Source: Candidatus Doudnabacteria bacterium
GTDB lineage: Bacteria > Patescibacteriota > Doudnabacteria > UBA920
Length of the DNA stretch: 64,000 nucleotides
Reading direction: 5' to 3'
Assembly: GCA_963788395.1 (NCBI GenBank)
Contig: CAWBGV010000031.1
Span: 73,094-137,093 of the forward strand
Part shown: in pieces, positions 6,896-34,666 of the stretch
How positions within the stretch are numbered: the stretch's first letter is position 1
Layout of the letters: every line of letters starts with the position of its first letter
Translations under genes and position numbers: made by a program
The notes under the pieces: generated by a model
What the model was told of the DNA's origin: nothing
The model's input: the letters and a program-made list of their open reading frames with translations, nothing else
The model's database searches: none

Positions 6896-6901
6896 GGTAA
6901 T

Positions 6902-8817: not shown

Positions 8818-8867
8818 ATAGACATAAAATAACATCAATTAGGAAATCAAAATTAAAAATCAATCAT

Positions 8868-13277: not shown

Positions 13278-13309
13278 AACAGGGTACCCCTTTAAAGGGG
13301 TACCCTGTT
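13278..13309 (+). terminator. Palindromic terminator hairpin (13-bp stem, TTTAAA loop)
   Basis: AACAGGGTACCCC-TTTAAA-GGGGTACCCTGTT immediately after the GNAT stop. Confidence 0.55.
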
Positions 13310-13333
13310 GTGGGTTGACAATGATTTTTAAGT

Positions 13334-13361
13334 ATGCTACCTTTATATAGCAAGGTAGCAT
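13334..13361 (+). promoter_or_regulatory. Putative PadR operator: 10-bp perfect inverted repeat ATGCTACCTT-N8-AAGGTAGCAT overlapping a TATATA -10-like box
   Basis: Read directly, 14 nt upstream of the PadR start. PadR regulators bind dyad sites and autoregulate. Confidence 0.5.
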
Positions 13362-13374
13362 TTACTACAATCAT

Positions 13375-13698
13375 ATGGAAATAAGAGATAAATTTAGCCC
13401 AATTCGCAAAGGATTGCTGGAACTAGCAGTTTTGCAGGTTATTTCAGTAAAAAAGGTTTATGCGGCGGATATTCTTGATACTCTTAAAGATACTGAGTTT
13501 GCGACCCAGGAAGGCACCCTGTATCCGCTTTTGAGCCGTTTGCGCCAGGAAAAGGCTGTGGATTATGAATGGGTTGAAAGTGAAGCCGGGCCGCCCCGAA
13601 AGTATTACCGATTGACTGATGAAGGCCGGGAACAACTTCGTCAGCTGCAAGAGTATTGGAAAACAATAAATTTAACTATTAAAAATCTGGGAAAGTGA
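13375..13698 (+). CDS. PadR-family transcriptional regulator
   Basis: 107 aa: winged HTH with the TLYPLLSRLRQEKAV recognition helix and wing, and YYRLTDEGREQL. Confidence 0.85.
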   Translation: MEIRDKFSPIRKGLLELAVLQVISVKKVYAADILDTLKDTEFATQEGTLYPLLSRLRQEKAVDYEWVESEAGPPRKYYRLTDEGREQLRQLQEYWKTINLTIKNLGK

Positions 13699-13749
13699 GT
13701 AGTTTATGGTTAGTAATACTACAAACTACCCACTATAAACTAAACACCT

Positions 13750-14814
13750 ATGAACAAAGTTATCACCATCAACTTAAATGGCCGCGCCTATCAAGTTGAA
13801 GAAGAAGGTTACAATAAATTGCGCGACTATCTCCAGTCGGCCGGCGAAAAATTATCCAACGACCCTGGCAAAGAAGAAATTATGAGTGACTTAGAGCAGG
13901 CCATGGCCGAAAAGTGCGATCAATACTTGCAAAAGAATAAAACCGTAGTCACCAACAGCGATGTTGAATCGATTATTTCACAGTTGGGGCCGGTCCAGGG
14001 TCAAACTTCGTCTGCCGAGGCCTCGTCAGACGCCGCTCATGAAAGTCCTAAAAACACTGCGGAACCAAAGCGTCTGTACCGGATTGCCGAAGGCGCTATG
14101 TTCCGCGGCGTCTGTACCGGATTGGCAGCTTATTGGAATGTAGATGTGACCTTTATTAGAATCGGTTTTGTAATTCTCGTCTTAATAACTCACGGATTTG
14201 GGATTTTGCTGTATCTGGTCATGATGATTGTTATTCCACCCGCAACTACCTCGGCCCAAAAAGCCGCGGCCAGTGGCGCGCCATTTACCGCCCAAGAATT
14301 TATTGACCGCGCCCGCCAGGAGTACGAAAAATTTTCCAATCGTGAAGACTGGAAGAATTGGAAGCGCGAATGGAAAGCTAAGGCTCGCCAGGAAAAGTGG
14401 GAATGGCGCCAGCAGCGCCGCGCCAGCTGGAATCCGGTTTCTCCATTTTTGGGCCTGTTAGTAGCTGTTTTGTCTATCTTATGGCTGTGGGGCCTGGTTA
14501 TGATCATAAGTCGAGGTATGATTTTTGGTTGGTTGCTGCCGGCTACTATTCCGATTTGGGTGATAATTCTGATATGGCTCTGCGTCTACAGTTTTGTGAT
14601 GTGGCCGCTGAAAGCCGCCCGCTGGTCGATGGCCTATCATGATCCCGATTACCACCACCATTACCACAACGGTTTTGCCGAAACCGTGGTCTGGTTGGCC
14701 TTTATAGCTATAATTATTTGGGCAGCCTGGCAATACATTCCGTCTTCCCACCATGCCTTGGAACAGGCGCGCGTATGGGGGCAGCACCTCACACAAAAAT
14801 TACGAATCCATTAA
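13750..14814 (+). CDS. PspC-domain membrane protein (LiaF/PspC-like stress sensor)
   Basis: PspC domain LYRIAEGAMFRGVCTGLAAYWNVDVTFIRIGFVILVL, several transmembrane helices, a charged W/K/E-rich linker and a His-rich tail. Confidence 0.75.
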   Translation: MNKVITINLNGRAYQVEEEGYNKLRDYLQSAGEKLSNDPGKEEIMSDLEQAMAEKCDQYLQKNKTVVTNSDVESIISQLGPVQGQTSSAEASSDAAHESPKNTAEPKRLYRIAEGAMFRGVCTGLAAYWNVDVTFIRIGFVILVLITHGFGILLYLVMMIVIPPATTSAQKAAASGAPFTAQEFIDRARQEYEKFSNREDWKNWKREWKAKARQEKWEWRQQRRASWNPVSPFLGLLVAVLSILWLWGLVMIISRGMIFGWLLPATIPIWVIILIWLCVYSFVMWPLKAARWSMAYHDPDYHHHYHNGFAETVVWLAFIAIIIWAAWQYIPSSHHALEQARVWGQHLTQKLRIH

Positions 14815-14816
14815 GT

Positions 14817-15581
14817 ATGACTAACGAAGTTTTGTTAAGCGTAAAAGATTTAAAAAAGAAGTATGACAACGGCTACGAAGCGGTAAAGGGCGTTAGTTTT
14901 GAGGTGCATAAAAGCGAAGTCTTCGGAATTTTAGGCCCCAATGGCGCCGGTAAAACCACAACTTTAGAAATGATAGAAGGTCTAAGATCAATTACCAGCG
15001 GGGCGGTTATTTTAGATGGGCTCGACGTCCAAAAAAGTCCTTACGCAGTTAAAGAACGCATTGGGATTCAATTACAAGCGTCGGCTTTTTTTCCCAACCT
15101 CACGCTGGTTGAACTTCTGCAAATGTTCAGTGATCTGTATGGCCAATCAAATGATCCCGTTGAACTCTTGCGTGAAGTCGGGCTGGAACAAAAAGCCGGC
15201 AGCTACGCTAAAGATTTGTCCGGCGGCCAGCGCCAGCGGTTTTCAATCGCGACGACTCTGGTCAATAAGCCGATCATGGTATTTTTAGATGAGCCGACGA
15301 CCGGACTTGATCCGCAAGCGCGCCGGAATTTATGGGAGCTCGTCCAGCAAATTCAAAAAAAAGGCACTACTGTTATTTTAACCACGCACTATATGGATGA
15401 AGCTCAAATACTCTGCGACCGGGTGGCAATTATGGACGAAGGGAAAATTGTAGCGCTGGATACGCCAAATGTACTCATTGAACAGCTGTTATCGCGCGGT
15501 TTCAAAGCTCACACCGTGGTGCCTCCCGCTACATTGGAAGATGTTTTTATAGATTTGACCGGAAAAGAACTCAGAGATTAA
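14817..15581 (+). CDS. ABC transporter ATP-binding protein
   Basis: Walker A GPNGAGKTT, signature LSGGQRQR, Walker B VFLDEPTTGLD. The ATG at 14817 lies 2 nt after the PspC stop, so the ORF-track N-terminus from 14718 is an upstream read-through. Confidence 0.9.
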   Translation: MTNEVLLSVKDLKKKYDNGYEAVKGVSFEVHKSEVFGILGPNGAGKTTTLEMIEGLRSITSGAVILDGLDVQKSPYAVKERIGIQLQASAFFPNLTLVELLQMFSDLYGQSNDPVELLREVGLEQKAGSYAKDLSGGQRQRFSIATTLVNKPIMVFLDEPTTGLDPQARRNLWELVQQIQKKGTTVILTTHYMDEAQILCDRVAIMDEGKIVALDTPNVLIEQLLSRGFKAHTVVPPATLEDVFIDLTGKELRD

Positions 15582-15659
15582 ATAAAATTCACAAATTTAT
15601 AAATTAAGTAAAATTTAATGTCAACCCAGTAATTTTATTTAACTTGTAAATTTATTTTT

Positions 15660-16759
15660 ATGCAAAAATTCTTTATTTCCCTGAAAGCCCTCACCGTTGC
15701 CTCGTTTAAAATGTATTTCCGAATCGCGGAGCGGTTATTTTTACGTTAATTGTTCCGCTGGCACTGTTGGCAGTATTTGGATTTTTGTCTAAAGGCGGCG
15801 CAACTACGATCAAACTCGATGTTACCGATTATGCCCAAACTCAGCTTTCTCAAAATTTTCTAAAGGCGCTTCAAAATGTTTCGGTCTTTAAGGTCCAGCA
15901 AGTCTCGGAAAATCAGGCAGGTTCTGATCTGGGAAAAGGCAATATTGATCTGGAAGTAGTTATACCTAAAAATTTTGGGCAAGCGGGCGCCGCCGGCCAG
16001 CCTAAACCTGCCAGTATTAAAACGTATTATAACCAGGCTAATCCGGCCAACGGGCAAATTGGAAACTTAATCATTACTCAGATTGTTGACGGTATTAATT
16101 CCCAAATTTCTGACGTCCCGCAAATCGTTTCAGTTCAATCTACCGGCGTCCAAACCAACAATTTGGGGTACTTTGATTTTATCTTGCCCGGCATTTTAGC
16201 CATGATCATCATGCAGTCCGGATTGTTTGCCGTGGCTTTTGCCTTTGTTTCGTTTAAAGCCAGCGGGGCTTTGCGCCGTATCCAGGCCACACCGGTACAT
16301 CCGCGAAATTTTATTATTGCTCAAGCAATTACCCGTTTAGTCATGACTTTGATTACCGTGGCAATACTCATCGGTTTCGGCGTAAAGTTTTTTAGTTTCC
16401 ACATGCTGGGGAGTTATTGGGATTTTACCCTTGTGGCAATTTTGGGAATTTTGATATTTTTGGGTTTTGGTTTCGCGATTGCCGGCTATGCCAAAGATGA
16501 AAATCAGGTTGCGCCGCTGGCCAACGTTATCCAGTTGCCCATGCTTTTACTTTCGGGCATCTTTTTTCCGCGCGACGATTTTCCTCACTGGCTGCAAACG
16601 GTGACTAATTATTTTCCGTTAACGTATTTAAGCGATGCCATGCGCCACATTGCTAACGAAGGATTGCACTTGACGCAGATAATGCCGGATTTATTGGGAC
16701 TGATTATTTGGTGCGTTATAGTCTTTGTGATTGCGATTAATTTGTTCCGGTGGGAGTAG
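15660..16759 (+). CDS. ABC-2 family permease, interrupted by a 1-nt frameshift near 15720
   Basis: ATG 15660 gives MQKFFISLKALTVASFKMYFR, then the frame changes (A-run CGAAT at 15720-15724) into NRGAVIFTLIVPLALLAVFGFL..., the first transmembrane helix of ABC-2 permeases. The ORF-track TTG start at 15767 would truncate that helix. Confidence 0.7.
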
Positions 16760-17009
16760 GGGAGGGATGAAACATGAAGCATGCTGTACGGGATTTGGGA
16801 GCTGAATTTTATGACGGATTTAGAGAGGTTGAAGAAAATTTTATATAAGCGACGAAAAAAGCGAATTCCTGCACGGGTCTTAAACCAGCTTAAAGCATTA
16901 CTGTTTCATCCGCTGTTTTGGCCGCCCTTGCCGGCACCGATTTATAAACGTAAATAGGGATTAAAAAAACTCTCCACTGCCGGAGCGTTTATTGATTGGT
17001 ATATTTTAC

Positions 17010-18478
17010 TTATAGAGCTGCCAAATCTATGGTTTGATCAATCCGGACCTGGGCAACAAAATCCGGAACGTGGGAGACCATAAGCAGGGCGCTTTGGTAA
17101 TCACTGAGGGCTTGGGCAATAATAGGTAAATGTCGGAAGTTAATATGATTAGTGGGTTCGTCCAGAATAAGCAGTCCGGGTTGTAGCAAAACCAGCCGAC
17201 AAAACGACAGGAGTCCTTTTTGGCCTTCCGACAGAGCCGCAATGGGTTGATCCAGGAGTTTGCCATCCAGTAAAAAACCCGCGGCGGTGGAACGCAAAAT
17301 GTGCTCATCGAATTTTTGCATAACTTCCTTGAGGGCATCAAAAGCTTTTTGGTCAAAGTTAAAATTGGAGAAATCTTGTTTGTAGTAGCCTATGAGGATG
17401 TCTTTGGCCACTGTAAAACCTTGTCCGGAACCGGCAGTGATTTTTTCCAGCAGGGTGCTTTTGCCGATGCCGTTTGGGCCGGTAATAATTACGTGGGTAT
17501 TTTTTCGTATCGTCATGTCTAGGTCTTTACTGACTACTCCATGTTCACGGATAGCGGAAAGAGAAGAGAACGTTAAAATTTTTCCATCAAAAAATGGGTC
17601 AAATTCTTGACAGGGGATGGTAAATTCGCGGATGGTCTTGTCTTCCCGCCGAACTTCTACCACGCTTTCTTCCGCTGCTTCCGCCGCTTCCCGCATGCGC
17701 TTGGCTACGGCGCGCAGTTTGCCGCCTTTGTGGGCGAAGACTTCGGCTTGGGAACGCTTCTCTTTAATTTCCATTTGCATGCGGGCGTTTTGCAAATTTT
17801 CCCGTTCAATCCGGTTTTTAATTTCTTCGACTACGTCGTAATAGTTCCCGGAGTATTGTTCAATTTTATGGGTAAAGACATCTAAATATAAGACACCATC
17901 GGAAAAGGCGTTGAGAAAATCGGCATCGTGGGAAATAACCACGACAGTTTTTTCGTACATCATCAAAAAGCCGGTCAAATGTTCTATGCCTTGTTGGTCA
18001 AGATTGTTTGTAGGCTCGTCCAAAAGTAAAATATCAGGATTTTGGATAAGCGCGTGCGCCAATAATAATCGCGCCTGCTGTCCGCCGGAAAAATGTTTAA
18101 CGGTTTTTTCTAAAGGCAGATCTACATTTACGACTTCAAACACGTCGCGGATTAACTTATCCAGATTATATTTTTTTTCAGCAAAAGCCGTGGCAAAATA
18201 ATCCCGGACCGATAATTCGGCAAGGTCTTTTGGCATAACTTGTCTGGCGATAGCAATTGAAGCGTCTTTGGGAGTAATCAATATTTCCCCTTAAGTTAGG
18301 TTTGATCTCGCCGGTAATCATTTTTAAAGAGTGTGGATTTTCCCGCGCCGTTCTGTCCCATAAGCGTGACTCTGCTGCCGCTGCGAACGCTAAAACTCGC
18401 CTCTTCCAAAACAGGTTTGTTGTGCCCGTACTCAAACGTGACGTTTGAGAATCTTAAAATAACGTTATCGTTAGCCAT
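17010..18478 (-). CDS. ABC-F family ATPase (EttA/Uup/YheS-like, tandem ABC domains), two frameshifts near the N-terminus
   Basis: Three ORF pieces (18296..18478, 18178..18435 and 17010..18281) read GQNGAGKSTLFK | MITGEIKPNLR | GEILITPKDASIAIARQVMPKDLAELSVRDYF... The breaks are at a TTTTT run (18321-18325) and a CCCC run (18287-18290). There is a second Walker A ITGPNGIGKST and signature FSGGQQARL. Confidence 0.85.
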
Positions 18479-18854
18479 ATAGTAAAAAAGAAACCCCGCT
18501 GATGGGGTGAAAAACTATATTGATTGTAGCAGCTTAACCGCCTCCGGTCAATCAAAATAAAACCCGCCACAAAGAGGGGTTTTTGGTCACAGTAGGCCAC
18601 AGCTTGACTTAAATATCGTAGCACATTGGTTTTTTATGTCAATATCTGGTGGACAGCATAGCTTCCGAGTTAAATCATATCTGGGACTACGTTTGGCGTT
18701 GGTATCCTTGGGTCAAAGAGTTAGAAACGGCCAATGTTGCTGGGTAATTTGGCGTGTTTAGGTCACACATGCCAGTATTTAAACGCTAAAATTTAGGCTT
18801 TTAATGCTTCTGTGCCGACTTTTTCTATAAGTCTTATAAATTTTTGCGCAGCTT

Positions 18855-20022
18855 CTAGTCCTGTTCAGCATCTTCTTTCTTGAATTGCTCCCATTGGTGA
18901 ACCCCCGCGTTTCTTTTCTTTCTCACAAGCAGTTTCCAATTTTTATGCTCTTCCGCGCCATCAAATGTTACGATCGGTAATTTCTTTTTTTCTCGCAAAA
19001 TATTAATATTTTCCTGCAACCTCAAAATTCTGCTGCCAGTTGTTAAAAATCCTTTCTTTTTGCGAGCAAGCTTTTGAGCTTTGGTAGAGTCTTCATCTAG
19101 CATTTCTTCAATTTCGCTTGCCTTTATACCTTGCAATTCCAAAGCGCCAACTTGATAACAAGTTAGAACGGCCATTTCCACAGCAGTGTCAAAATCAACA
19201 ATGCAAATTCTATAATCTTTATCCATTGCTATTCTTTCTAATCCGGCTAACAAAATCTGATTAAATATTCAATGCTATAAGCGCCTGCACCACCAGCAAC
19301 TAGAGACATAAGCCCATCAGCAGGAATTATCAGCTTTTACATTCATTAAAAGCGGAGAACTGATTCGTCCTTGGACAAGAGGTATGGCATCTTGTTCCAT
19401 ATTCGGAACCATGGGGAAAGGTTGAAATTTTCTTTGTGATATTAACTTTGGTGACAAAAGTTCAATTGTTGATTTGGTTTTATCATCATCACTAAATACA
19501 CTGATATAAACACAAGTATAAAAGGTTAAATCACTGTCTTCCGACAAAAATTTGTTATAGTAATCATGAGATGTGTGTTTGTATGCCAACAAAAATTTGT
19601 TAAAAAAATTTATTGTAGTAGTTCTTAAAAATTAGCTATTGGTTGGGTTAGACCAGGCCGAATCTATGTCATTGATGGAAAAAATAATAGCAATTTCTGA
19701 AAAAAACCATGGGTAAAAAACTTTACCAGCTTCTCCAGCAATGATATGGAATATTGGCTGATCACATCCTCCCCGGATCCGACTAACTCCGCATTTTTTG
19801 AATTTTTTGGAGTAATAGGTTCAAGTGCAATGCGTTGTTGAGCACTGTCAGTTCTCTCGCTTCTTAATAAATTGCTTTTATCAAAAATCTGATTTTTCCT
19901 TCTTTCGATAAGATCTGCACCAAGCCTACTTCCTCGGCACCAACGGCAACAGGATAAAATCCATCGGGAACACCGATGTGAAATGGATAGTCGAAAACTA
20001 TTTTGACAAAGCCTGGTCTCAT
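18855..20022 (-). pseudogene. Degenerate SLOG/LOG-like (Rossmann-fold, PGGxGTxxE-type) gene in several frame-shifted pieces
   Basis: Pieces read MRPGFVKIVFDYPFHIGVPDGFYPVAVGAEEVGLVQILSKEGKIRF... | ...LLRSERTD...HGFFQKLLLFFP | ...DAIPLVQGRISSPLLMNVK | LIIPADGLMSLVAGGAGAYSIEYLIRF | LLAGLERIAMDKDYRICIVDFDTAVEMAVLTCYQVGALE... The ADGLMSLVAGGAGAYSIEYL..LAG...MDKDYRICIVD segment parallels the LOG-family DaFIaLPGGfGTlEEl...qLg.h.kP..llN motif. Breaks are at A4/T4 runs (19251-19254, 19336-19339). Confidence 0.3.
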
Positions 20023-20174
20023 AAAATTTATATATAAAGAATAGCTCTTATTTAAGAGAAAGTAAAAGGCTTGTGGAGTTAATTGTGTTTAAAATACCAA
20101 TATTTCTGTAAATTTGACAGGATTTTTACGTCTGCTATAATATAACAAAATTGTTATATTAGTAAACAAAACTA

Positions 20175-20547
20175 ATGTCAGCGTTGGAAACATCCTTCAA
20201 AGTAGAGTTTTTTACAACTGCTGCCGGCAATAATCCAGTTTGGGGAGTCTACAGAAGATTTACCTCCCGAAGAATTTAAGTATTTTGATCGCGCTATTAC
20301 GCGCTGTCAGACGTTACCTTTGTCTAACCTGTTTAAATGTGGTTACTTGGAAAAAATGTCAGGCTTTGATTTGTATGAACTTCGTATAAGTGTTAAAAAC
20401 AAAATTTACCGAATACTGTGTGTAATAAAAGACGCAGTTATTTGGTTTTTAAATGTGTTTCAAAAGAAAAGTCAAAAAATTAAACAAAAAGAAATAAATA
20501 CGGCCCTCGAGCGTTTTAAGCAATTAAAACTATTGGGACAATACTAA
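20175..20547 (+). CDS. HigB-like (Gp49/DUF891 RelE-ParE superfamily) toxin, 1-nt frameshift at a GGGG run
   Basis: ATG 20175 gives MSALETSFKVEFFTTAAGNNPVW, then a shift at GGGG (20242-20245) into ESTEDLPPEEFKYFDRAITRCQTLPLSNLFKCGYLEKMSGFDLYELRISVKNKIYRILCVIKDAVIWFLNVFQKKSQKIKQKEINTALERFKQL, the Gp49-like ...YRI.y..dg..iilLh.F.KK.QKtP..EI..A..R motif. Confidence 0.6.
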
Positions 20548-20548
20548 T

Positions 20549-20815
20549 ATGAACTACAATGAACTGAAAAATAAAATATTGAGCAAGCCTGCTTTTAAAG
20601 ATTCTTTAAAAGCTGATTTAGATTTTGAAATAAGCCAAATGATTATTGATGCACGTCTAATGAGAGGTCTTACCCAAAAACAATTAGCCGGTATTGTAGG
20701 AACAAAGCAACCTAGTATCGCAAGAATTGAAAGTGGCTCTTTATTGCCATCCCTGAGCTTTTTAGAAAAAATCGCGAAAGCCTTAGAAACTAATTTAATT
20801 CCCCCCAAAGTTTGA
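20549..20815 (+). CDS. HigA-like XRE-family HTH antitoxin
   Basis: 88 aa: LTQKQLAGIVGTKQPSIARIESG. It starts 1 nt after the toxin stop, the toxin-first order typical of higBA. Confidence 0.7.
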   Translation: MNYNELKNKILSKPAFKDSLKADLDFEISQMIIDARLMRGLTQKQLAGIVGTKQPSIARIESGSLLPSLSFLEKIAKALETNLIPPKV

Positions 20816-20985
20816 ATTAACTGAAAATTTAAAAGTAAAAACAACTTCAATTACTCCTCAAGCTATTCAGGCATTCCCAACCCCTGTGCAGATTAATTAT
20901 TACCTTTTGGTGATACCAGAAATTCGTTCTGTAAGGCAAGTTGAGAGAAAAGTGTTGTTTTTTAATCCTAATTAAACTATATTTT

Positions 20986-21363
20986 ATGAAAAAAATTGAT
21001 AACTTTGGAATAAAACATATTTGGACTATTCTTTGCTCAAACAGTAGCATTGATCAAAACACTAACAATGTTTCTTTGTTTAATGTTATTGAGCAAGTAG
21101 AATTACAAGCATTCGATAAGAAAAAAATCAATGAAAAACAAGAGAAAGGAATACCTTTAAATTGTGAACTTATATCCTTATGGAATAGAAAAGATAATGC
21201 CAAAAAAGGTTATGAAGAAAAGGTGGAATTTGTAGATCCAGCCGGGGCAATTTTAAACACTATCGAAACCCCATTAAAAATACCTGATAATATCCAAAGC
21301 TTTAGAATGACCTTTCGAAATTATGGGGTTAAAAGTCACTACTGCTGGAGAATATTGTTTTAA
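20986..21363 (+). CDS. Hypothetical protein (AT-rich orphan)
   Basis: 126 aa from MKKIDNFGIKHIWTILCSNSS.... It has no recognisable motif, and its codon usage matches the AT-rich island. Confidence 0.3.
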   Translation: MKKIDNFGIKHIWTILCSNSSIDQNTNNVSLFNVIEQVELQAFDKKKINEKQEKGIPLNCELISLWNRKDNAKKGYEEKVEFVDPAGAILNTIETPLKIPDNIQSFRMTFRNYGVKSHYCWRILF

Positions 21364-21811
21364 AATTAGCGCTAGAGAGAACAAGAAGGATAGTTTCATT
21401 GAAGTTGCCACCTTGCCTCTTAGGATTGTTATAAAATAATTTAAATTTAAAACACGTCTGTAACATGGCTAGTTTTTGGTATGTGTTTGTATGGTGAAAA
21501 TAGTTAATGAAATCACCATTTCGCTTGAAAATATAAGACTTATTCGAAATTTGCTGAAATCCAAAACCATACAAAAACATACACTTTTTGCGTTACATAT
21601 AAATTTTCTGAGTGTGTTGTGGGTCGGTTCCGGAAGTTCCTATTTTCCTTACAAAAAATGAGGTTTAAAGGAATTTTGGCAAAATCTAAAACGACACAAA
21701 AAAACACACTTTTACCATGGTAGCACACTAAATTCTTGGTTTTTCGCTATGGACTTTTCCTCAAATTTTTGTTAAAGTATTGAGGCACAGAAAAAGGAGG
21801 ACTAGAACCGA

Positions 21812-22666
21812 ATGTCACGTCGTAATAAGGACAAACGCGAAAAAAGTCAGCATCAGAAAAAGCAGGCTGCGGTAATGAACACAGCGGCTAGTGAGCTTGT
21901 TGTGAATATGCTGAGCGGTGCTAGCAATCCTTTGGTTGCTATCACTCTCATTGGACCAAGACCCACCGTGCAAGGCATCCCACTCAGTCGTTCCATGGGC
22001 TGTGTTGTGGAACGGCAAAACAACGGACTTCGTTTGGTAATGACCTGTCGTCATGCTTTCGAGAACTTACGCAATGGCTACAGGCTCTCGTTGCAATGCA
22101 AGGCCCAAGTCGGCTGCCAACACCGTTGGAGGTGATTGGTCAGCCCATTGAAGATACGGAGCCGGAGAGCGATGTAGCTTTTCTGCTAGTCAGGGATCGT
22201 TTGAATTTGCCCACACGGCCATTTGTGGTCGAGCAGGTAGATCCCGAATTTCATGACATGCAGATTCTCTACAATGCCGCTAACCGTTGCGACCCACTGT
22301 CACGCGTGTATGATGTTTTCGTTGCAAGGCAGGGGGTGAAAGAGCGGGCACCGATGTTTTTGCAAGATGTCAATCAGAACCACAGAAATCGTTCCCGCAG
22401 AGGACACGACGAAGCAAGAAGATTTACGGCATCAAGGCTGGATTTCTTGCCGGATGTTTCAGATGCACAGCCGGAGTGGTTTCTCGGGCAGCCCGGTATG
22501 GGACGAACAACTCCGACTCTACGGAATGGATGTGCGGGGAACCTCTCCTGGCGACGGAATGCATGCCACAATGGGTGACGTCCTTATTTGTCTGCCAACG
22601 AGCGAGCTGCATGCTGCGCGTCAGAGAGTGGAGCCTCAACTCCAACAACTGCTTGCTTCATTGTGA
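21812..22666 (+). CDS. Trypsin-like (S1 family) serine peptidase, split into three frames
   Basis: Strong SD AAAAAGGAGG before ATG 21812. His box MTCRHAF (ORF 21812..22135), Asp box ESDVAFLLV (ORF 22096..22578) and Ser box GFSGSPVW (ORF 22367..22666) form a chymotrypsin-fold catalytic triad in the right order. The N-terminus is basic (RRNKDKREKSQHQKKQ). The coding region is visibly more G+C-rich than the flanks. Confidence 0.55.
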
Positions 22667-22689
22667 TCGCCATTTCGGTTTCAACTTTG

Positions 22690-22723
22690 GTCACCGCTGC
22701 TTTACTGGGCGGTGACTTTTTTA
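22690..22723 (+). terminator. Rho-independent terminator after the protease gene
   Basis: GTCACCGC-(11 nt)-GCGGTGAC followed by TTTTTTAT. Confidence 0.7.
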
Positions 22724-23100
22724 TCCCCAAATCGTTCAGTTGATTTAGAATTTTATAACTTATATTCTTGTAATAGGTTTCTTTTCAAACTTTATAGTTT
22801 AGTCTGATTTGTTCTCAATAGGACTACTTTACGCAAACTCTTTGCGTGGGTAGTCCTTTTTATTTTAGGCAATAACGCAATGGGTAATAAAGTCCGTTTT
22901 TTGCTCGGCAGGTTGCCAATACCCATTGCACCTGTCTGGCCAAGAGCGGATTTTTAAATTAAAACACAAATTTATGTTAACAATTGAGCAATGTCGGGAA
23001 ATAATTGGCAATACTGCGATATCCGACAGCGAACTTGAACAATTACGCAATAGCCTGTATAGTATCGCCGATTTGATAATTAAACGCACTGTGGGCGAAG

Positions 23101-24690
23101 ATGCCGAAGAAAGTTCAAACCATAATTGAATATAAGCGTGCGTTAATTTATTGCCGGGTTTCCAGTGAGCGGCAGGTTAACGAAGGCCATGGTCTTGATA
23201 GCCAAGAGCAGCGGTGTATTCGCCGTGCTTCAGATATGGGTTTGGAAGTGGCAAAAGTGTTTCGGGACGAGGGAGTATCCGGTGGTTTGTTTGACCGGCC
23301 GGCAATGCAGCTGCTTATAAAGTATCTGGATGCACGTCTACACGAAAATTTTATTATTATCTTTGACGACTTAAGCCGTTTTGCAAGGGATGTGCAAGTT
23401 CACATACAACTTAAAAGCGAACTCATTTCCAGAGGCGCAAAACTGGAGTGTTTAAATTTAAAATTGGAAGATACGGCAGAGAGTGAGCTGGTAGAAATTA
23501 TTTCCGCAGCTACGGCGCAGTATCAACGCAAGACCAATAAAAGGCAAGTTATTCAAAAAATGAAAGCCCGGCTGGAAATGGGCTATTGGACATTTTGTCC
23601 GCCACCAGGCTTAAAGTTCTGCAAAGACGCGGCCAAGGGGCAAATTTTGCGCCCCCATGCGCCACAATCTGTAATCTTTAAGGCTGCAATAGAGAAATAC
23701 CGCGACTTTGAGTTAAATACGCTTGAGGAGATTCAGCAGTTTATAATTGCGCAATATCGGCTTAACGGGCTTAATAAATCTATTTCTATAAGTGGCGTTA
23801 AAAGGCTGCTTACCAATGTTTTATATGCCGGCTGTGTGGAATACGAGCCGTGGGGTATTCCGCTTGTAAAAAATGTCCATGAAGGCTTTATTTCCTACGA
23901 AACTTTTCTTGCAGTGCAGGATCGGCAAAATAATGCGAGTAAGCCAAGAATCCGTAAAGACCAGAACATGGATTTTCCTTTACGTAATTTATGTTATTTG
24001 CGAAAGTTGTAAGCATCCTTTTACCGCGGCGTGGTTTAAGGGTAGAAAAGAAATTTATGGATATTATTTATGTAAGCAGCAAGGTTGCTCCCTTAAAAAT
24101 AAAACAATTAATGCGGATATTGTTGAAGCTGACTTTGTTAAATTGCTAAAACGAGTGTCACCAAGCCCGGAAGTTCTAAAATTGGCTGAAAAAGTTTTGG
24201 TAGATTTATGGGAAAGCCAAAGGAAAAACGAAGGACAGGTCAAAGCGGCATTTTAGCGCAGCTGAGTAAACTAGAAACTCAAAATAAAACTTTGGTGGAA
24301 AGAATTGCAAAAGCTACCGCTGACGGCTTGGTTGCTGAATACGAAAAGACTATTGCGCAAAACGTGGCAGAAATTAAAAACCTGCAAAAAGAACTCGATA
24401 AAACAAAATACTCCCAGGACGGGTTTCAAACCGCAGCGGGAGCAGTATTCGAATATCTTTCAAAACCGTTAGAACAGTGGCAAACCCGCGACTACGCAGG
24501 CAAACGGCTGTTACTCGGTATGTATTTTGAGCAGAAAGTTGCTTATAACCGTGAATTTGGTTTTCAAACCGCTCAAATTCCTTTTGTCCTTGCGACAATC
24601 CAGCAAGAACACGTGTCTAAAAATCATCTGGTGGACCGGACGGGAATTGCACCGCAAACCATGATGTCAAGCTGTGGTCCGTCACTGTGA
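23101..24690 (+). CDS. Large serine recombinase (resolvase/invertase catalytic domain + recombinase domain + zinc ribbon + coiled coil), two frameshifts
   Basis: ORF 23101..24012 has ALIYCRVSSERQ...GHGLDSQ (catalytic Ser), ORF 23873..24256 has CESCKHPF...YGYYLCKQQGC (zinc ribbon), and ORF 24208..24690 has the coiled-coil tail. Together they make about 530 aa. Breaks are at T runs (about 23975-23990, and TTTT at 24251-24254). Confidence 0.85.
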
Positions 24691-24863
24691 CCCGGCCCAT
24701 GTAGTAATATCGTAATACAACGACACCAAAGAAATTTTTAAAAAAAGATAAATTAGACTTTATCTTTTGTGGATAAGCTCAAAGGAGTCTACCTTAAGTG
24801 AAAAATATTTACGGATCGAGGAAAAAGCGCTATACTAAATTTAGAAATATTAAAAAAATTACT

Positions 24864-25617: not shown

Positions 25618-26016
25618 ATGAGCGATACAAAAATGTCAGTGAACGAAGAAGAATTAAAGAAAAAGCTAACACCGGAGCAATATCATATTTTACGCGAAAA
25701 GGGCACAGAGGCGCCGTTTACCAGTCCGTTGGTGGATATGCATGAAAAAGGGATGTTTACTTGCGCGGTTTGCGGTAATCAATTATTTGCTTCCGACGCT
25801 AAATTTGATTCCGGTACCGGCTGGCCAAGCTTTGACCAGGCTATCCCCGGCGCCGTAGAATTGCACGACGATAGCTCTATGGGGATGCACCGGACCGAGG
25901 TCACTTGCGCCCGCTGCGGCAGCCACTTGGGACATGTCTTTGACGATGGCCCTTCGGAAACTACGGGACAGCGGTACTGTATTAATGGGGCGTGTTTAAT
26001 TGTAAAGAAGGAGTAA
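25618..26016 (+). CDS. msrB: Peptide-methionine (R)-S-oxide reductase
   Basis: 132 aa with two CxxC pairs (CAVCGNQL..., CARCGSHLGHVF) and the catalytic RYCINGA motif. Confidence 0.9.
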   Translation: MSDTKMSVNEEELKKKLTPEQYHILREKGTEAPFTSPLVDMHEKGMFTCAVCGNQLFASDAKFDSGTGWPSFDQAIPGAVELHDDSSMGMHRTEVTCARCGSHLGHVFDDGPSETTGQRYCINGACLIVKKE

Positions 26017-26145: not shown

Positions 26146-27849
26146 ATGCTCCAAATTCTCTTTGCCTTTCTTGCGGGTATCCTGACTATTGCCGCCCCTT
26201 GCATTTTACCAATGCTTCCCATAATCCTCGGCGCTTCTGTCGGTCAGCAGAACCGCCAGCGACCATTGTTAATAGTAGCCGGTTTTATTGTTAGTTTTGC
26301 GGCCGCGAGTTTATTATTATCGGCTTTAGTCACTCACCTTAATCTTTCGCCCAATGTTTTACGGGATGTAGCCGTAATTTTGCTGCTGATATTCGGTCTG
26401 TTGATGGTTTGGCCGGGTCCGTTTGAACGCTTAACCGCACTGTTTAACGGTTCGATTAATAAAGCTAACGCGCTTGGCGGCGGCCAAGGTAATTGGGGTG
26501 CTTTGGTTTTAGGGCTGGTTTTAGGAATTGTTTAAAGGCCCTGCGCCGGTCCAATATTAGGAGCAATTTTAACCCTTATAGCTACTCAAGGCTCTACAGC
26601 CCATGCTTCGGTTTTGCTCATTGCCTATGCTATTGGCGCCGGGGTACCTATGCTGATTATTGCTTACGGCAGCCAGTGGATTACCACCAAAGTTCGGGGC
26701 ATAGCCCGATATTCGGTTCGGTTACAGCAAATTTTTGGAGTCTTGGTTATTTTATTGGCCGTGGCTATGTTTTTTCAATACGACACCAGAATTGAATTGG
26801 CTCTAACCGCCGCGTTTCCTCAATCAAGCTTAGAAGACCAGCTGGTGCAGAAAAAGCTAATCCTTTTGCAACTAATACTCCGCCGCCGTTGCCGGCAACT
26901 CCGGCGTCTACAATGCGGCGACCGGCCAACTGTCGGCGCCGCAGCACTGTTGAGCAAATTCCACTCCAGAATTATGGGAAAGCGCCGGAATTCACGGGGA
27001 TTGACCACTGGCTCAACTCTCCGCCGCTGACTATGAGCCAGCTGAAAGGTAAAGTCGTGCTGGTGGATTTTTGGACGTACTCTTGCATTAATTGTATTCG
27101 AACTTTGCCGTATGAACCACGTGGTACAACAATTATAAAGATGATGGCCTGGTAGTGGTCGGCGTGCATACGCCGGAATTTGCTTTTGAAAAAGATACCG
27201 GCAATGTCGAAAATGCCATCAAACAATTTAATATTTTGTATCCGGTGGCTCAAGATAACGAGTACGGGACTTGGAACGCCTTTAATAACGAATATTGGCC
27301 GGCGGAGTACCTGATAGACCAAAACGGCAATATTGTCTACGAACACTTTGGCGAAGGGGAATATGATCATACTGAAAACGCCATTCGCGAATTGCTGAAT
27401 ATGACCCCGAACGTCGCGCCCAATAACGGCCAAAACCTTTCCGGAGTGGAATCGCCGGAAATGTACTTTGGAACTGACCGGGTCCAGTATCTCACTCCGG
27501 CTCAAACCCCCTCCGCTGCGGCCCAAACGTATACGTTACCGGGCAGTTTGGCTTTGAATAATTTTGCCCTGGGTGGTTCCTGGGAATTTAACTCCAGTAT
27601 GCCCAGTTAGCCGGCGATCAGGGCACGGTGGAGCTGCATTTTCATTCTGGCCAGGTCAATATGGTAGCCGCCAGCAGCGGGGCGCCGGTTACTTTAAATA
27701 TAGTGGTTGACGGCAAAACTCAGCCCTCTGTTACCGTCCAAGCCTCGCAACTCTACACTCTTTTTAATTCTCAAGATTATTCTGATCATACTATAGAAAT
27801 TTCCATCCACGGCCAGGGCTTCCAAGCCTTTACCTTTACGTTTGGCTAA
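26146..27849 (+). CDS. DipZ-like fusion: CcdA/DsbD transmembrane domain + TlpA-like thioredoxin domain + C-terminal beta domain, with 5 reading-frame lesions
   Basis: CcdA motifs APCILPMLP and (after an in-frame TAA at 26533-26535) RPCAGPILGAIL. A Pro/Thr-rich linker is reached by a shift at an A5 run (26851-26855). The thioredoxin core is LKGKVVLVDFWTYSCINCIRTLPY (CxxC), followed by WYNNYKDDGLVVVGVHTPEFAFEKD after a shift near 27112-27125. The tail ...QYAQLAGDQGTVELHFHSG... is reached by a shift at a CC run (about 27593-27596). Confidence 0.7.
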
Positions 27850-30174: not shown

Positions 30175-31610
30175 TTATATAGGAAATTCAATCGTAAAAA
30201 CCGTACCTTGGCCACGCGAACTTTTGACTGTTATAGTTCCTTGCAATTCTTTTTCCACGATGGACTTAGTTGTTGCTAAGCCCAGGCCAGTGCCCCGCTC
30301 AATGGTTTTTGTAGAAAAAAAAGTTTCGAATATTTGGCTGAGATGCTCTGGTAAAATTCCTATTCCCTCGTCTGTCACTTCCAAAATCGCTATACCGTCT
30401 TTAGACTTCAGTTTAATCAGAATACTTTTATGATCCCGAGTAACTTCGTCGTACGCATCAATCGCATTCGAAAGTAAATTTGTAATAACCTGATAAAATT
30501 TAAGAGGGTTGCCAAAGTAATCAACCTGTTGCGTCTCCAAAAAGACGACCTCAATTTGTTGGGTGAGGGTTTTATAATGAAACAGCTGTATTACCTGATA
30601 AATTTCCTGATTAAGCGAAAATAAAAATTTGACGTTTTGATGATTAAGCTGTTTGCGCACCGCCTCAATAAATTCCTGCATTCGTTTACTGATGATTACC
30701 GCGCGTTCAAGTTCAGCTTGGGTGGTTGCAATATCGGGATGATCGGTTTTTAACTTTTTTATATTGAGAGACAGGGCGGTGGGGTATTCATCAAGTCGTG
30801 GAACGCTCCGCTGGCTAGTCGGCCGAACTCCGCGAACCGATCTAATTCCGTAACCTTTTCTAATTGAGCCTGTTTTAGGGCTTGCGTGCGTTCTGCAATT
30901 TTAATTTCCAGCAAGTCCCGTTCGTTTTTCAGTTCTTGTTCCGATGTTTGGGCGCGGCGAAGCGATTTAACTATTTCACGATTGGCGAGCCAAGACACCA
31001 CGGTTAAGAGTATAAAAATAGCAGCAAATTCCAGCGTATCCAACACTTCGAGCGGTTTGTTTTTCCAGTGCAAAATGGGTAATGAAGGTGCAGCGCTTTC
31101 TTTTAGGCCGGCAGGGATTAAAACCGTGATTATAACTAAGGTGATAATAAAGCTAAAGCCAGTCCCGATTAAAATACTCGACATAGTGATAACTAAGGCG
31201 TCGGCCAGTAAGGCTGTGGGTTCGTCGGCTCCCCAGATACATTCTGTGTAAATAGTAGCAGCCAAAAACAGAACAATAAAAATGTAAGCCGAAAATTTAT
31301 AATACCCTTTGCGTGATAGGTAATAAAGGGCAACAAATAAGAACACTAAAGCGCAAAAGATTAACGGCGGAACTCCTCGATAATCAGTTTGCAGATGGTC
31401 GTGATTATAAAAAATAACTGCCGTGAGCAGGCCTACTATCAGCAAATTTCCGCAAAGTAAAACATTTAAAATGAGTTCTCTGCGGCGTTCGTCTTCTAGG
31501 TGGGCGCGGGGACGCAAAAAATGTTGATATAAAAAATATACCCCTTTCTTGCTCAAGCCGTGCAATCGGTGGAGACTGGAAAAAGAATTTTCCAAAGAAC
31601 CGGTGCCCAT
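30175..31610 (-). CDS. Sensor histidine kinase (membrane domain + HisKA + HATPase_c), 1-nt frameshift at the H-box
   Basis: The N-terminal ORF (30759..31610) has 5-6 transmembrane helices, a coiled coil and ...SGAFHDLMNTP. A frame change at a GGGG run (30781-30784) continues TALSLNIKKL... into ORF 30175..30681, which has the N box LLSNAIDAY and the G boxes GTGLGLATTKSIV. Confidence 0.8.
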
Positions 31611-31651
31611 ATGCGAGTTTTAATGTTTTACAATCAGTCGATTAATAATTC

Positions 31652-32671
31652 TTAGTGTTCGCGGGAAACGATAAATTGCAAAGATGTAAAAATTGCTTTT
31701 TTTGCCGTGGTGTCCAGTAAATTTGTGGTGGTTTTTAGAAAATTTTGCTGGGCGGTGCCGGCCAGCTTTTTGGCGGTTTCTTGCACGTAGGTAACACTGC
31801 CGTATTTTTTCATTAATGAGACAATGAGCTTTTTTTCCTGCCAGCTTTTTTGCTCTCGCGGTTCCGAATAAATTTTATTTATTAACCGCCGTTCAGCCGG
31901 GGTACATTGTTTTAGAAGGTGAATAAGCAAGAGGGTGCGCTTGCCTTCGGAAATATCGCGGTATAATTCTTTGGAAGAATTTTTGGCTGTCAAAATATCT
32001 AAAACGTCATCCCATAGCTGGAAAGCTAAGCCGGCCGGTTTGCTCCAGGTTTCTATCTTAGCCAATTCTTGGTCCGGCTGTCCGGCAATAATTGCGCCTA
32101 ATTGTAGCGGCGCAGTAATGCTGTAGTAGGCGCTTTTTCGGCCGATCATGTCAAAATAATCTTTTTCAGAAATAAGCAGCTGCTGCTTATCTGTCCAGGA
32201 GAGGTCTATAAATTGGCCTTCTATTGTAGTAGAAAGCACGTCTATCATTTTATCGTAGACCTTCCACCCGCGTTCTGGACCTAATAGACGAACATTGTCG
32301 CCTAAGATTTTCCACATTATAATGTGCAAACCGTCGCCGGCATTCAATGCCAGTTCGGGACTATAGAGAATGCTGAGCGCGGGTTTGGAGCGGCGCAGGA
32401 GTGAATGATCTTCCACGTCGTCGTGAATCAACAGCCAGTCTTCGGCAGTTTGTAACGCGGCAGCGGTTAGCAGTGAATCGGCGTCTTTGCCGCCATACAT
32501 TTGTGCCGCAAGTATAACCAGCGCAGGTCGCAAATACTTGCCTTGACGCCGGGGATAATCCGCAATCATTTGGTAATGCCTGTGGGGATCTTTTGCCGGC
32601 AGGTACTTTTGGATAACTTCCCAAACTTGAGGCTTGAGCCGCTGTAGTTCTTTTAAAAAAGTTGTCGGCAT
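31652..32671 (-). CDS. Polyprenyl diphosphate synthase (GGPP/FPP synthase family)
   Basis: 339 aa with the first Asp-rich motif LIHDDVEDHSLLRR and the second QLWDDVLD. Confidence 0.85.
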   Translation of the reverse strand: MPTTFLKELQRLKPQVWEVIQKYLPAKDPHRHYQMIADYPRRQGKYLRPALVILAAQMYGGKDADSLLTAAALQTAEDWLLIHDDVEDHSLLRRSKPALSILYSPELALNAGDGLHIIMWKILGDNVRLLGPERGWKVYDKMIDVLSTTIEGQFIDLSWTDKQQLLISEKDYFDMIGRKSAYYSITAPLQLGAIIAGQPDQELAKIETWSKPAGLAFQLWDDVLDILTAKNSSKELYRDISEGKRTLLLIHLLKQCTPAERRLINKIYSEPREQKSWQEKKLIVSLMKKYGSVTYVQETAKKLAGTAQQNFLKTTTNLLDTTAKKAIFTSLQFIVSREH

Positions 32672-32740
32672 ACTTTGGTTCGTTAAAAAATTTTGGAATG
32701 AATTTTTTGTATAGCTTGAACTTTAAGCTTCCCAAATACA

Positions 32741-33412
32741 TTAACCCTCATCGATCTTATAACCGCGTCCGGACACGGTATGAATCAGCTTCACGCTGTG
32801 GCCGCGGTCTATTTTACGCCGCAAATTCAGAATGTGGGTTTCTATGGTATTCGAAAAGGGGTCGGCATTCATATCCCAGACATGTTCCATAATCAGCCCG
32901 CGAGAGACTACATTACCTTGGCGTCTCATTAAAAATTCCAATAATGCCAGTTCTTTTCTGGTTAAGTGAATTTCTTTATCGCCGCGCTTCACTAAATGTT
33001 TTTTGCTGTCGAGGGTCAGATCAGAAACTAACAAGACTTCCTTTTCCATTCCCGATGGCCGTCTCAGGATGGCATTGATCCGGGCCAATAGTTCGTCAAA
33101 CTGAAATGGTTTGGTTATGTAGTCGTCGGCTCCTTCGTTCAGGACGGTTATTTTTTGACGCACTTCAGCCTGCACAGAAAGCATAATAATAGGCATCGTT
33201 TTGCCGGCTTGCCGCAGCTCCCGGCAAACTTCTGTGCCGGTTTTTTTGGGAAGTATATTATCCAAAATCACCAGATCGTAAGTGTGAATTTTTCCCAAGA
33301 TTAATCCATACTCCCCATCGGTGGCCAGATCTACGGTGAAGACCTCGGATTCTAAAGCATTTTTAAGATGCAGGCCTAAATCAATATCGTCTTCAATGAG
33401 TAATAAGCGCAT
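32741..33412 (-). CDS. Response regulator, OmpR/PhoB winged-helix family
   Basis: The receiver domain has the acidic DD pocket (LLIEDDIDL), phospho-acceptor Asp (LVILDNILP) and conserved T and K. The C-terminal trans_reg_C has ...VWDMNADPFSNTIETHILNLRRKI. Confidence 0.9.
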   Translation of the reverse strand: MRLLLIEDDIDLGLHLKNALESEVFTVDLATDGEYGLILGKIHTYDLVILDNILPKKTGTEVCRELRQAGKTMPIIMLSVQAEVRQKITVLNEGADDYITKPFQFDELLARINAILRRPSGMEKEVLLVSDLTLDSKKHLVKRGDKEIHLTRKELALLEFLMRRQGNVVSRGLIMEHVWDMNADPFSNTIETHILNLRRKIDRGHSVKLIHTVSGRGYKIDEG

Positions 33413-33632
33413 AGGATTTGTCTTATTTCGTAATCAGTATAAGTAAGTTTTGGATGAGGCGCAAACGATAATCTTTATAAATATTTTATCTTTTTTTGAG
33501 AATTCGTTTTGAAGAGTTTTAGCCAAAAGTAGGAAACTCCAATAGAATCGGGAGCTTTAAGAGTATTTTTAGCATTTAAAATTAAAATAGTTTATCCACA
33601 GACAAAAAAATAATCTCGGCCAGAGGCCAAGA

Positions 33633-34148
33633 TTATGGGTTTAAGGTCTTAATAATTGATGGTAAACAAGTTTTGAGCCAGAACGTGTATAGTTCCGGAT
33701 GGGCCGATAATTCTTTTTCCAGGCTCGCAATATCTATCCAGCGTAATTCACTGACTTCTTGGGGATTAGGATGTCCTTCAGTTTCAGTAGCTCCAAAGAG
33801 GACGTGATCAAATTCATATTCAGTCAGGCCGTTGCTGAAAGATGCTTGGTAGACAAAAGTGAACTTTTCTGCCAGTGGACAATCAAAACCAACCTCTTCT
33901 TGCAGCCTGCGGTGAGCGGCGGCCAAGGTGGTTTCGCCGGGGCGTTGGTGACTGCAGCAGGTGTTGGTCCAAAGGCCGCCAGAGTGGTATTTGTGAAGCG
34001 CGCGGCGCTGGAGCAGAAGTTGACCTTTATTATTAAATACAAAAACAGAAAAAGCCCGGTGCAGCTTGCCTTCACGGTGAGCCTGCATTTTTTCCATAGT
34101 GCCGATTTGGTTGTCGTATTCGTCAACGAGGATTAGTAATTCCGGCAT
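33633..34148 (-). CDS. idi: Isopentenyl-diphosphate delta-isomerase, type 1 (Nudix)
   Basis: 171 aa: HREGKLHRAFSVFVFN, WTNTCCSHQRPGE (catalytic Cys) and EYEFDHV motifs. Confidence 0.85.
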   Translation of the reverse strand: MPELLILVDEYDNQIGTMEKMQAHREGKLHRAFSVFVFNNKGQLLLQRRALHKYHSGGLWTNTCCSHQRPGETTLAAAHRRLQEEVGFDCPLAEKFTFVYQASFSNGLTEYEFDHVLFGATETEGHPNPQEVSELRWIDIASLEKELSAHPELYTFWLKTCLPSIIKTLNP

Positions 34149-34666
34149 TAGATAGATTTTTTATAATAATTGAACACTGCTTGGGTTCCCCAGGATTTTA
34201 GATCGGCGGGGGAGAAGCCGAGTTTTGCCGCATATTGTTGGAGCGTCTGTTCGTCCGGGGCTTCAATTTCCAGAAAGGTCGGCAAGTCGGGATAGGTGTC
34301 GAATTCAAAATGCACGCCGTCGAGAAGGTAAGAAGTGCGGTGTTTTGTTGACGCCTGGTATTTGGGACGCAGCCCAAGGCCAAGTAATATTTTTTTCATC
34401 GTATCAAAATTACTGACGGTAACTTCAAGCTCTTCCGATACTTTGGCTTTTTCAGTGCTTAATAATTTTTTGTAGGTAAGTTCTACCTGATCACCTTTAA
34501 TGCGTAACCTAATGAGTGTTTCATTTTTGGACAGACTTTGATCCGCAAAATCAAAACCTGTGGCCGCAATTTGGCCATCAAAAGACATTTTTGCGCCTAA
34601 AGCCAGGAGCTTTTTTATGATTAACGAGCTGTTGATCTCTAAAATTTTTGCTTCTATTTCGCGCAT
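34148..34666 (-). CDS. CYTH-domain protein (class IV adenylate cyclase / triphosphatase-like)
   Basis: 172 aa with the N-terminal EIEAKILEI (ExExK) signature and beta-barrel spacing of basic residues. Confidence 0.7.
   Translation of the reverse strand: MREIEAKILEINSSLIIKKLLALGAKMSFDGQIAATGFDFADQSLSKNETLIRLRIKGDQVELTYKKLLSTEKAKVSEELEVTVSNFDTMKKILLGLGLRPKYQASTKHRTSYLLDGVHFEFDTYPDLPTFLEIEAPDEQTLQQYAAKLGFSPADLKSWGTQAVFNYYKKSI

Follow-up and report, generated by a model that had tools for sequence, protein, structure and literature searches.

The protease gene and its family

We analysed a 64,000-nucleotide stretch of a Candidatus Doudnabacteria assembly (contig CAWBGV010000031.1, positions 73,094 to 137,093; hereafter the window), in which an AT-rich island adjoining an ABC-F ATPase gene harbours a gene for a trypsin-like protease. 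The coding sequence lies at 21812-22666 on the plus strand, as defined from a list of open reading frames (ORFs), a three-frame translation, homologues and a structural model, and is predicted to encode a stand-alone S1 (chymotrypsin-fold) serine protease of ~285 amino acids (aa). In the assembly the gene is present as three ORF pieces (21812-22135, 22096-22578 and 22367-22666), which occupy two frames in the order A, B, A, and not three frames as a first-pass annotation of this DNA had proposed. Taking the analyses described below together, we consider it likely that this gene is a cassette carried as cargo by a mobile island, that it belongs to a family of the Patescibacteria, and that the breaks in its reading frame are errors of assembly.

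The start of the gene is preceded by a ribosome-binding site, GGAGG, which can be read from the sequence 11 nt 5′ of the ATG (21796-21800, plus strand), so that both the position of the gene and its Shine-Dalgarno sequence stand as first annotated. DNA alignment showed that this site and the 5′ leader, ACCGAATGTCACG, are kept in both of the loci that carry the closest homologues, L001 and L002. Similarity to the L002 homologue starts at ~21750, 3′ of a set of upstream repeats, and it is here that sequence and alignment point to a promoter-like site, TGGACT-17 nt-TAAAGT (21750-21778, plus strand), which may serve as the promoter of the gene; a site of the type TGGACT-17-TA.. is common to L002. 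The coding sequence is followed on the same strand by a putative intrinsic terminator (22690-22722), made up of an 8-bp stem (GTCACCGC/GCGGTGAC), an 11-nt loop and a T6 run, which marks the end of the protease unit. Analogous terminators are found in L001 and L002, meaning that all three copies of the protease gene have one. Since the leader and ribosome-binding site are shared with the closest homologues, and since terminators accompany all copies, the region from ~21750 to 22722 would appear to be a self-contained single-gene cassette comprising a promoter-like site, GGAGG, the coding sequence and a hairpin terminator.

The gene had also been described as clearly richer in G+C than everything around it. 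This holds with respect to its flanks and the rest of the cargo, as the gene has a G+C content of 52.0%, versus 34.5% at 18500-21811 and 41.8% at 22667-24700. A value of 52% is, however, within the range of host genes: the mean of the window is 45%, many 500-nt windows and ordinary genes reach 50-55%, and the third-codon-position G+C of the protease gene is host-like. The compositional outlier is the AT-rich flank and not the protease gene.

The complete His, Asp and Ser triad noted in the first reading is present in the protein obtained when the frame is repaired. Its codons, all on the plus strand, are those for His81 in TCRHAF (22052-22054), Asp121 in DVAFLLV (22171-22173) and Ser226 in GFSGSP (22484-22486), where the nucleophile is the first serine of the motif and residues are numbered as in the repaired protein. 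These align, respectively, with the His motif, the DLA/DIA motif, and the GQSGSP and GNSGS motifs of Jep and SplE. Ser226 and Gly227 are invariant in 53/53 aligned family members, and His81, Asp121, Phe124, Ser228 and Pro229 are each found in at least 90% of the same 53 sequences. The Pfam model Trypsin_2 (PF13365) scored the protein at 26.8 bits after a first repair and at 27.6 bits after a better one, the gathering cut-off being 27.6, and was matched at E ≤ 0.01 by 44 of 53 relatives. In addition, a sequence profile search of the PDB recovered mycobacterial HtrA alongside the staphylococcal Jep, Spl and V8 enzymes (E = 1e-6 to 1e-4), and the motifs of all three triad residues line up.

A structural model of the repaired protein was generated using AlphaFold and the 53-sequence alignment, yielding a pLDDT of 96.6 and a pTM of 0.92; it supersedes an earlier model based on a 7-sequence alignment, which had a pLDDT of 62. 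Foldseek returned 625 PDB matches to this model at E ≤ 1e-3, with target-normalised TM-scores of up to 0.69. The top 50 matches listed were all trypsin-fold serine proteases, the best being the protease domains of Deg, HtrA and Rv3671c, and viral S1 and 3C-like structures were also present among the fold matches. Structure prediction on the repaired ORF, the check put forward in the first-pass annotation, gave an S1 double barrel with a triad that aligns with those of Spl, Jep and HtrA. Beyond the barrels, the model has helices at the N-terminus (residues 3-34) and a pair of helices at the C-terminus. We therefore predict that the protein is a chymotrypsin-fold S1 (clan PA) serine endopeptidase, in which His81 and Asp121 would activate Ser226 of GFSGSP for the cleavage of peptide bonds.

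Trypsin_2 was the only Pfam domain matched in the ~285-aa protein, which has no PDZ or other added domain. Furthermore, no signal-like segment was found at the charged N-terminus, and the peak in hydropathy (1.63) sits in a strand of the barrel. Because it lacks a signal peptide, the protease probably acts in the cytoplasm. The N-terminus is indeed rich in lysine and arginine, as had been noted, with 8 such residues among the first 20. Across the family, the basic extension ranges from 2 to 47 residues ahead of the first conserved motif, and it is Lys/Arg-rich in 22/53 members, which suggests that the Lys/Arg-rich N-terminal helix is a variable appendage, found in fewer than half of the relatives examined.

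The family to which the protease belongs is sparsely represented. Among 5.8 billion proteins we identified six relatives, of which three (283-325 aa) share 61-69% identity with the window's protein and the other three 45-47%; for the intact 283-aa homologues the value is 64-69%. A profile search of 1.84 billion cluster representatives recovered only 66 clusters of the family, the members of which are marked by the peculiar motifs NPLV, RSMGF, LYNA-N and LYGM-xRG. Named relatives come from Andersenbacteria, Sungbacteria and Staskawiczbacteria. These data suggest a very small family whose identifiable members appear to be Patescibacteria (the candidate phyla radiation, CPR). The window itself, which also encodes a purine operon, ppsA and pyk, has a PurD whose best named relatives are Patescibacteria proteins at 60-64% identity. 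A cyanobacterial origin of the DNA was discarded on account of these PurD relatives and because the HIP1 motif is not enriched. Exact look-ups of two of its proteins, MsrB (25618-26016) and the HTH protein at 20549-20815, turned up no contig. The protease family was not found in phage, plasmid or IMG/VR collections, no NCBIfam or PHROG model and no PADLOC model at a significant score matched the protease, and we found no literature on the family. What is new here is one uncharacterised, lineage-restricted clade; the trypsin fold itself was already known.

Since the neighbourhoods of the nearest homologues had been suggested as a further check, we compared six distinct loci. The protease gene alone was common to them, with no conserved neighbour. 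At some loci homologues lie next to genes of a housekeeping kind (PBP2, MraW and a permease), at another next to a transposase, and most relatives sit outside islands of the type described here. At one locus, 1.2 kb 3′ of the Andersenbacteria homologue, we noted a gene for an IetA-like AAA ATPase (L003 12052-13410; PADLOC E = 2.5e-15). This recalls defence systems in which an ATPase is paired with a protease; the ATPase gene is absent at the other loci.

The recombinase element and its proposed attachment site

The protease cassette is located within a region, 18644-24636, that we interpret as a ~6.0-kb integrative element of a large serine recombinase, with conserved ends and exchangeable cargo, of which the cassette would be the last cargo unit. 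Both ends carry the 11-nt core ATCTGGTGGAC as a direct repeat, at 18644-18654 on the left and at 24626-24636 on the right, the latter copy falling within the 3′ end of that recombinase's ORF. Similarity to two further contigs, L019 and L020, starts at the left core, and similarity to L019 ends at the right one. With the window these contigs share only 18647-18786 (88.6%) and 22717-24648 (91.6% DNA identity), the second of these blocks starting at the T-run of the protease terminator. A third contig, L017, shows what occupies this chromosomal site in a strain from the population to which the window belongs: its left flank is that of the window, the left block follows in diverged form (18656-18735), and beyond 18735 the DNA is entirely different. 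The earlier proposal that the protease gene is cargo of a mobile island is thus supported by mapped ends and by sister elements that have the same ends and different cargo.

The right-hand part of the element (22717-24636, plus strand) is, judging by similarity to L019 and L020, a conserved recombinase module that consists of a small ORF (22926-23129) and the large serine recombinase (23101-24690), in which we identified Resolvase (E = 4.8e-23) and Recombinase (E = 2.4e-5) domains. Its gene is interrupted in the window by two indels of one base each, at 23988 and 24245. An intact recombinase of 531 aa is encoded on L019 and L020 and is at least 90% identical to the window fragment; the first 303 residues of the window's recombinase are 97% identical to an intact 531-aa relative.

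At the left end, a conserved frame of 33 codons plus a stop (18646-18747, plus strand; LVDSIASELNHIWDYVWRWYPWVKELETANVAG) would continue the recombinase ORF in the circularised element. The corresponding peptide has 84% identity in L019 (37 aligned residues) and 73% in L017 (41 residues), and the differences in the DNA of this left block fall mostly at every third position, a pattern that points to a protein-coding sequence. We had also considered the block as a candidate RNA and dropped this idea when it proved to be coding; Rfam yielded only chance-level matches near the left end, and nothing in the window at gathering scores. When the right end is joined to the left end, as it would be in an excised circle, the recombinase ORF continues in frame through the left-end peptide. 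Its tail is then a conserved, tryptophan-rich stretch of 30 aa (SIASELNHIWDYVWRWYPWVKELETANVAG, followed by the stop), and in the integrated form the tail is host-encoded (RTGIAPQTMMSSCGPSL, followed by the stop; ORF region 24208-24690). The attachment site thus seems to lie inside the recombinase gene and, therefore, integration would replace the C-terminal ~30 residues of the recombinase with a tail supplied by the host. A search of the literature produced nothing decisive on attachment sites inside serine-recombinase genes.

We also observed that the host DNA on the two sides of the element contains an inverted repeat, GGTCACAGTAGGCCACAGCTTGAC / GTCAAGCTGTGGTCCGTCACTGTGACC (18585-18608 versus 24666-24692), the arms of which lie ~50 nt from the core in a roughly symmetrical arrangement and would form a long hairpin in the empty site. 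Searches of the window and of the reconstructed target site yielded no tRNA or tmRNA.

Between the left end and the protease cassette lies an AT-rich cargo block (18855-21363), in which the ORF list and profile matches reveal several ORFs. On the minus strand there is a weak DUF4145-like ORF (18855-19253), together with two unknown ORFs. These are followed on the plus strand by a HigB/Gp49-like toxin gene with one frame break (20175-20547; phrog_2523, E = 3e-14 after repair), by an intact gene for an 88-aa HTH_3 antitoxin-like protein (20549-20815), the start of which shares 1 nt with the stop codon of the toxin gene, and by an unknown ORF of 140 aa (20941-21363) with no related neighbour at the homologue loci. 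With the upstream repeats and the protease, these make up the cargo of the window's element. The element of L017 instead carries genes for PDC-S19 (DUF3644, E = 1e-126) and Vsr (5455-8159), and that of L019 a gene for PDC-M36A (E = 2e-22) and a weak match to DUF4238 (5085-9537). L019 and L020 encode a S-adenosylmethionine (SAM)-methyltransferase-like protein of 278 aa in addition to the PDC-M36A-like and DUF4238 proteins. A hairpin with a T-run (22820-22862) and the 67-aa ORF at 22926-23129, both 5′ of the recombinase, are kept in L019, the latter with 95% amino-acid identity; this small protein may serve the element as an accessory or directionality factor.

Where the AT-rich cargo meets the protease cassette there are repeats. 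Two direct copies were identified on the plus strand, the first at 21519-21598 and the second 125 nt further on, at 21644-21724, which are identical at 50/70 bases, a value to be compared with 300 dinucleotide shuffles, none of which exceeded 41/70. On the minus strand, 21479-21495 is an inverted copy of the repeat core that pairs with 21566-21582 at 16/17 positions, a match reached in 0/100 shuffles. The direct repeats reported in the first reading are therefore real, if longer than the 35-40 bp given there. The small dyad singled out with them, ATGGTGA-N15-TCACCAT, is at chance level, as at least one such dyad occurs in 73/100 shuffles. Tandem Repeats Finder reported only a 22-nt A-rich run in this upstream region, and no further copies of the repeat were found in the 64-kb window or at any related locus, including upstream of the L001 and L002 homologues. 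The region has no significant RNA structure when compared with shuffled sequences (z = -1.5). The repeats are, in short, real and local.

Frame breaks and rival readings

DNA alignment with the intact homologues of L001 and L002 revealed two breaks in the protease frame, on the plus strand. At ~22086/22087 one base is missing (CAGGCT-CTCG; 22085-22090), and at ~22346/22347 two bases are missing (GAGCG--GGCAC; 22343-22349), the second break restoring the first frame. The alignment also shows an in-frame insertion of 6 nt. Unrepaired, translation from the ATG would end at the stop at 22133-22135. Once repaired, the protein matches 63 of the 65 positions at which the six closest homologues do not vary, as well as 22 of the 23 that the wider family conserves at 80% or above, and there is no stop in the correct frames. 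Programmed frameshifting was ruled out: neither break has a slippery sequence, and the homologues are colinear ORFs.

Two independent contigs of the same population, L017 and L018, taken from the Logan assembly of run ERR11630400, allow a comparison with other parts of the window. L017 corresponds to window positions 13281-18735 and, over the 5.4 kb before the junction at 18656, differs from the window by 5 substitutions and 3 single-base indels; all three indels break genes of the window, and L017 encodes an intact 488-aa ABC-F ATPase and an intact 366-aa permease. L018, which corresponds to 30753-34315 (3.5 kb), has three single-base indels and two substitutions, with one indel and both substitutions bunched at the very end of the contig. 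Together the single-base indels lie at window positions 15721, 18293-18294, 18321, 30781-30787, 33491 and 33525, and those that fall in genes break the ABC-2 permease (15721), the ABC-F ATPase (18293 and 18321) and the histidine kinase (30781) in the window only. Comparable lesions in the window are seen in the HigB-like toxin (a frame break at ~20240), in the serine recombinase at the two positions given above, in a DsbD-like gene (an in-frame TAA at 26533-26535 and two frame breaks, at ~26850 and ~27115) and in purH (AICARFT/IMPCHase; one base missing at ~37125, beside a GGGGG run). Because indels and substitutions occur at a ratio of ~1:1 and because the independent contigs restore the ORFs, the frame breaks in the protease gene are likely to be consensus errors of the assembly, in which case the gene would be intact in the organism.

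In a separate case, the copy of the protease gene in a Staskawiczbacteria metagenome-assembled genome (MAG; L012 4395-5257) is split in two frames and is intact on a metagenome contig (L013 4482-5348), the ORFs in the compared stretch being almost all 100% identical between the two. This is a second deposited MAG that breaks the protease gene.

The chief alternative is real, recent inactivation, which would make the protease gene a pseudogene and a remnant of decaying cargo, as the first reading had surmised, alongside the frame-shifted recombinase and toxin. We regard this as possible though rather doubtful. It would account for the two frame breaks and the premature stop, for the similarly broken neighbours (two breaks in the recombinase and one in the toxin) and for the concentration of lesions in and around the island, and it finds support in the TAA of the DsbD-like gene. 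However, lesions of the same kind affect housekeeping genes (purH and the genes for the ABC-F ATPase, ABC-2 permease and histidine kinase), they are absent wherever an independent contig exists, the near parity of indels and substitutions (~1:1) is not what natural variation typically produces, and outside the breaks the coding sequence is conserved, with 63/65 invariant residues retained and no in-frame stop. Several observations nevertheless weigh against the picture of an intact cassette in an integrated element. No independent copy of this protease gene was found in the collections, only the deposited 107-aa fragment P0034. One of the two breaks is a deletion of 2 nt, and both are outside long homopolymers, where some of the verified differences do occur. 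The lesions are bunched at 15.7-37.2 kb, with the purine operon (38-51 kb) clean, which is odd for random error and could denote a region in decay. The TAA in the DsbD/thioredoxin-like fusion gene, at a position where we take Trp to be expected from the usual CcdA/DsbD motif, is a substitution-type lesion that indel errors leave unexplained. The promoter-like site is weak, matching the consensus at 8/12 positions and falling under the cut-off of the promoter scanner, and so is absent from the scanner's list. Finally, no contig with an empty site was recovered, a circular junction was not observed either, and the sole contig for the same site, L017, holds a related element.

Other readings concern where the gene came from, what the repeats do and what the protease is for. 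That the protease gene is native to the chromosome, with the AT-rich DNA and the recombinase as separate insertions on either side, would fit its host-like G+C and third-position G+C and a family typical of Patescibacteria, but is very improbable: the protease falls within 18644-24636, a stretch enclosed from end to end by the 11-nt repeats and the blocks common to L019 and L020, the left-end frame that continues the recombinase ORF ties the two ends into one element, and past 18735 the L017 contig of this population carries wholly different DNA. We likewise think it improbable, though less so, that the upstream repeats function as iterons or as an array bound by a regulator, in control of the protease or the element. 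Both the 70-80-nt direct repeat and the 17-nt inverted copy are beyond chance, the second direct copy ends 26 nt 5′ of the promoter-like -35 box, and an HTH protein is encoded 0.7 kb upstream. Against this, there are only two direct copies and one inverted one at irregular spacing (87 and 125 nt), with no others in the window, at related loci or upstream of L001 and L002, and the region shows no significant RNA folding; the arrangement could equally be a local duplication or the scar of a miniature inverted-repeat element (MITE) between two cargo cassettes, and we judge either of these no less likely than a regulatory array. The name iterons, used in the first reading, is inapt because there are only two direct copies and the element has no replication gene. 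The suggestion that the protease is an abortive-infection effector, acting as a single-gene anti-phage or toxic conflict protein that would be spread by islands and cleave host or phage proteins when triggered, strikes us as unlikely, if less so than the array. In its favour, the gene fills a variable cargo slot that in sister elements holds PDC-S19 and Vsr (L017) or PDC-M36A and DUF4238 (L019), it lies beside a toxin-antitoxin pair, the family is patchy with varying gene contexts, and in one lineage an IetA-like AAA ATPase is encoded 1.2 kb downstream. But the best PADLOC match, to LmuA, is not significant (E = 0.046 over 77 residues), neither PHROG nor NCBIfam models match, no partner or sensor gene is conserved, and other relatives lie among housekeeping genes or beside a transposase. 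The cargo pattern of the sister elements is the sole evidence for a role in conflict, and it is associative. It is less probable still, on our estimate, that all the parts combine, such that a Patescibacteria-restricted protease is a new single-gene conflict effector that moves as a promoter-to-terminator cassette in serine-recombinase islands whose recombinase gene spans its own attachment site and has its tail swapped on integration.

Our preferred reading therefore remains that of a probably intact protease cassette as cargo of a recombinase element. The protease clade is useful for annotation and not surprising, and the gene is fairly ordinary. Because the contig carries verifiable indel errors, the split ORF and the deposited 107-aa fragment should not be read as biology before the reads have been checked. 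The element of which it is cargo holds more interest. It is a compact 6-kb unit, found in ultra-small bacteria of the CPR, that exchanges its cargo, and its value lies in its mapped ends, the candidate defence cargo of its sisters and a recombinase ORF that apparently crosses the attachment site. It is worth following up because mobile elements and defence in Patescibacteria are little known.

Comparison with known systems

The best fold matches of the protease model are the S1C domains of HtrA, DegP, DegS and DegQ and of Mycobacterium tuberculosis Rv3671c (MarP), with E-values down to 1.6e-08 and target-normalised TM-scores of 0.6-0.7. With these it shares the double beta-barrel and the His-Asp-Ser order of the triad. 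Unlike HtrA and Rv3671c, with which its identity is 10-16%, it is without a PDZ domain, signal peptide or membrane anchor, and it has the extra N-terminal helices (3-34) and C-terminal helix pair. The features that define the HtrA/DegP subfamily, one or two C-terminal PDZ domains and export to the envelope, are not evident in this protein.

Among solved structures, the best profile matches are S1B enzymes, namely staphylococcal Jep, Spl, V8 and glutamyl endopeptidases (E = 1e-6 to 1e-3), for which the motifs G-x-S-G-S-P-[IV]-[WFY]-D/N, T-x-x-H and D-[IL]-A all align, the stretch around the Ser motif being the only one that scores significantly alone. Unlike the protease described here, S1B enzymes are secreted and have signal and propeptides. 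Within Trypsin_2 (PF13365), the protease is a borderline member, its 27.6 bits being equal to the gathering value, and forms part of a distinct, very small clade.

The element as a whole resembles other large-serine-recombinase elements in its Resolvase and Recombinase domains, its short end repeats, the position of the recombinase at one end and its variable cargo. Unlike the usual elements of this kind, its crossover core appears to lie inside the 3′ end of the recombinase ORF. An attachment site within the integrase gene is the layout of the SSV1-type tyrosine integrases of archaea and of integration-dependent immunity in mycobacteriophages.

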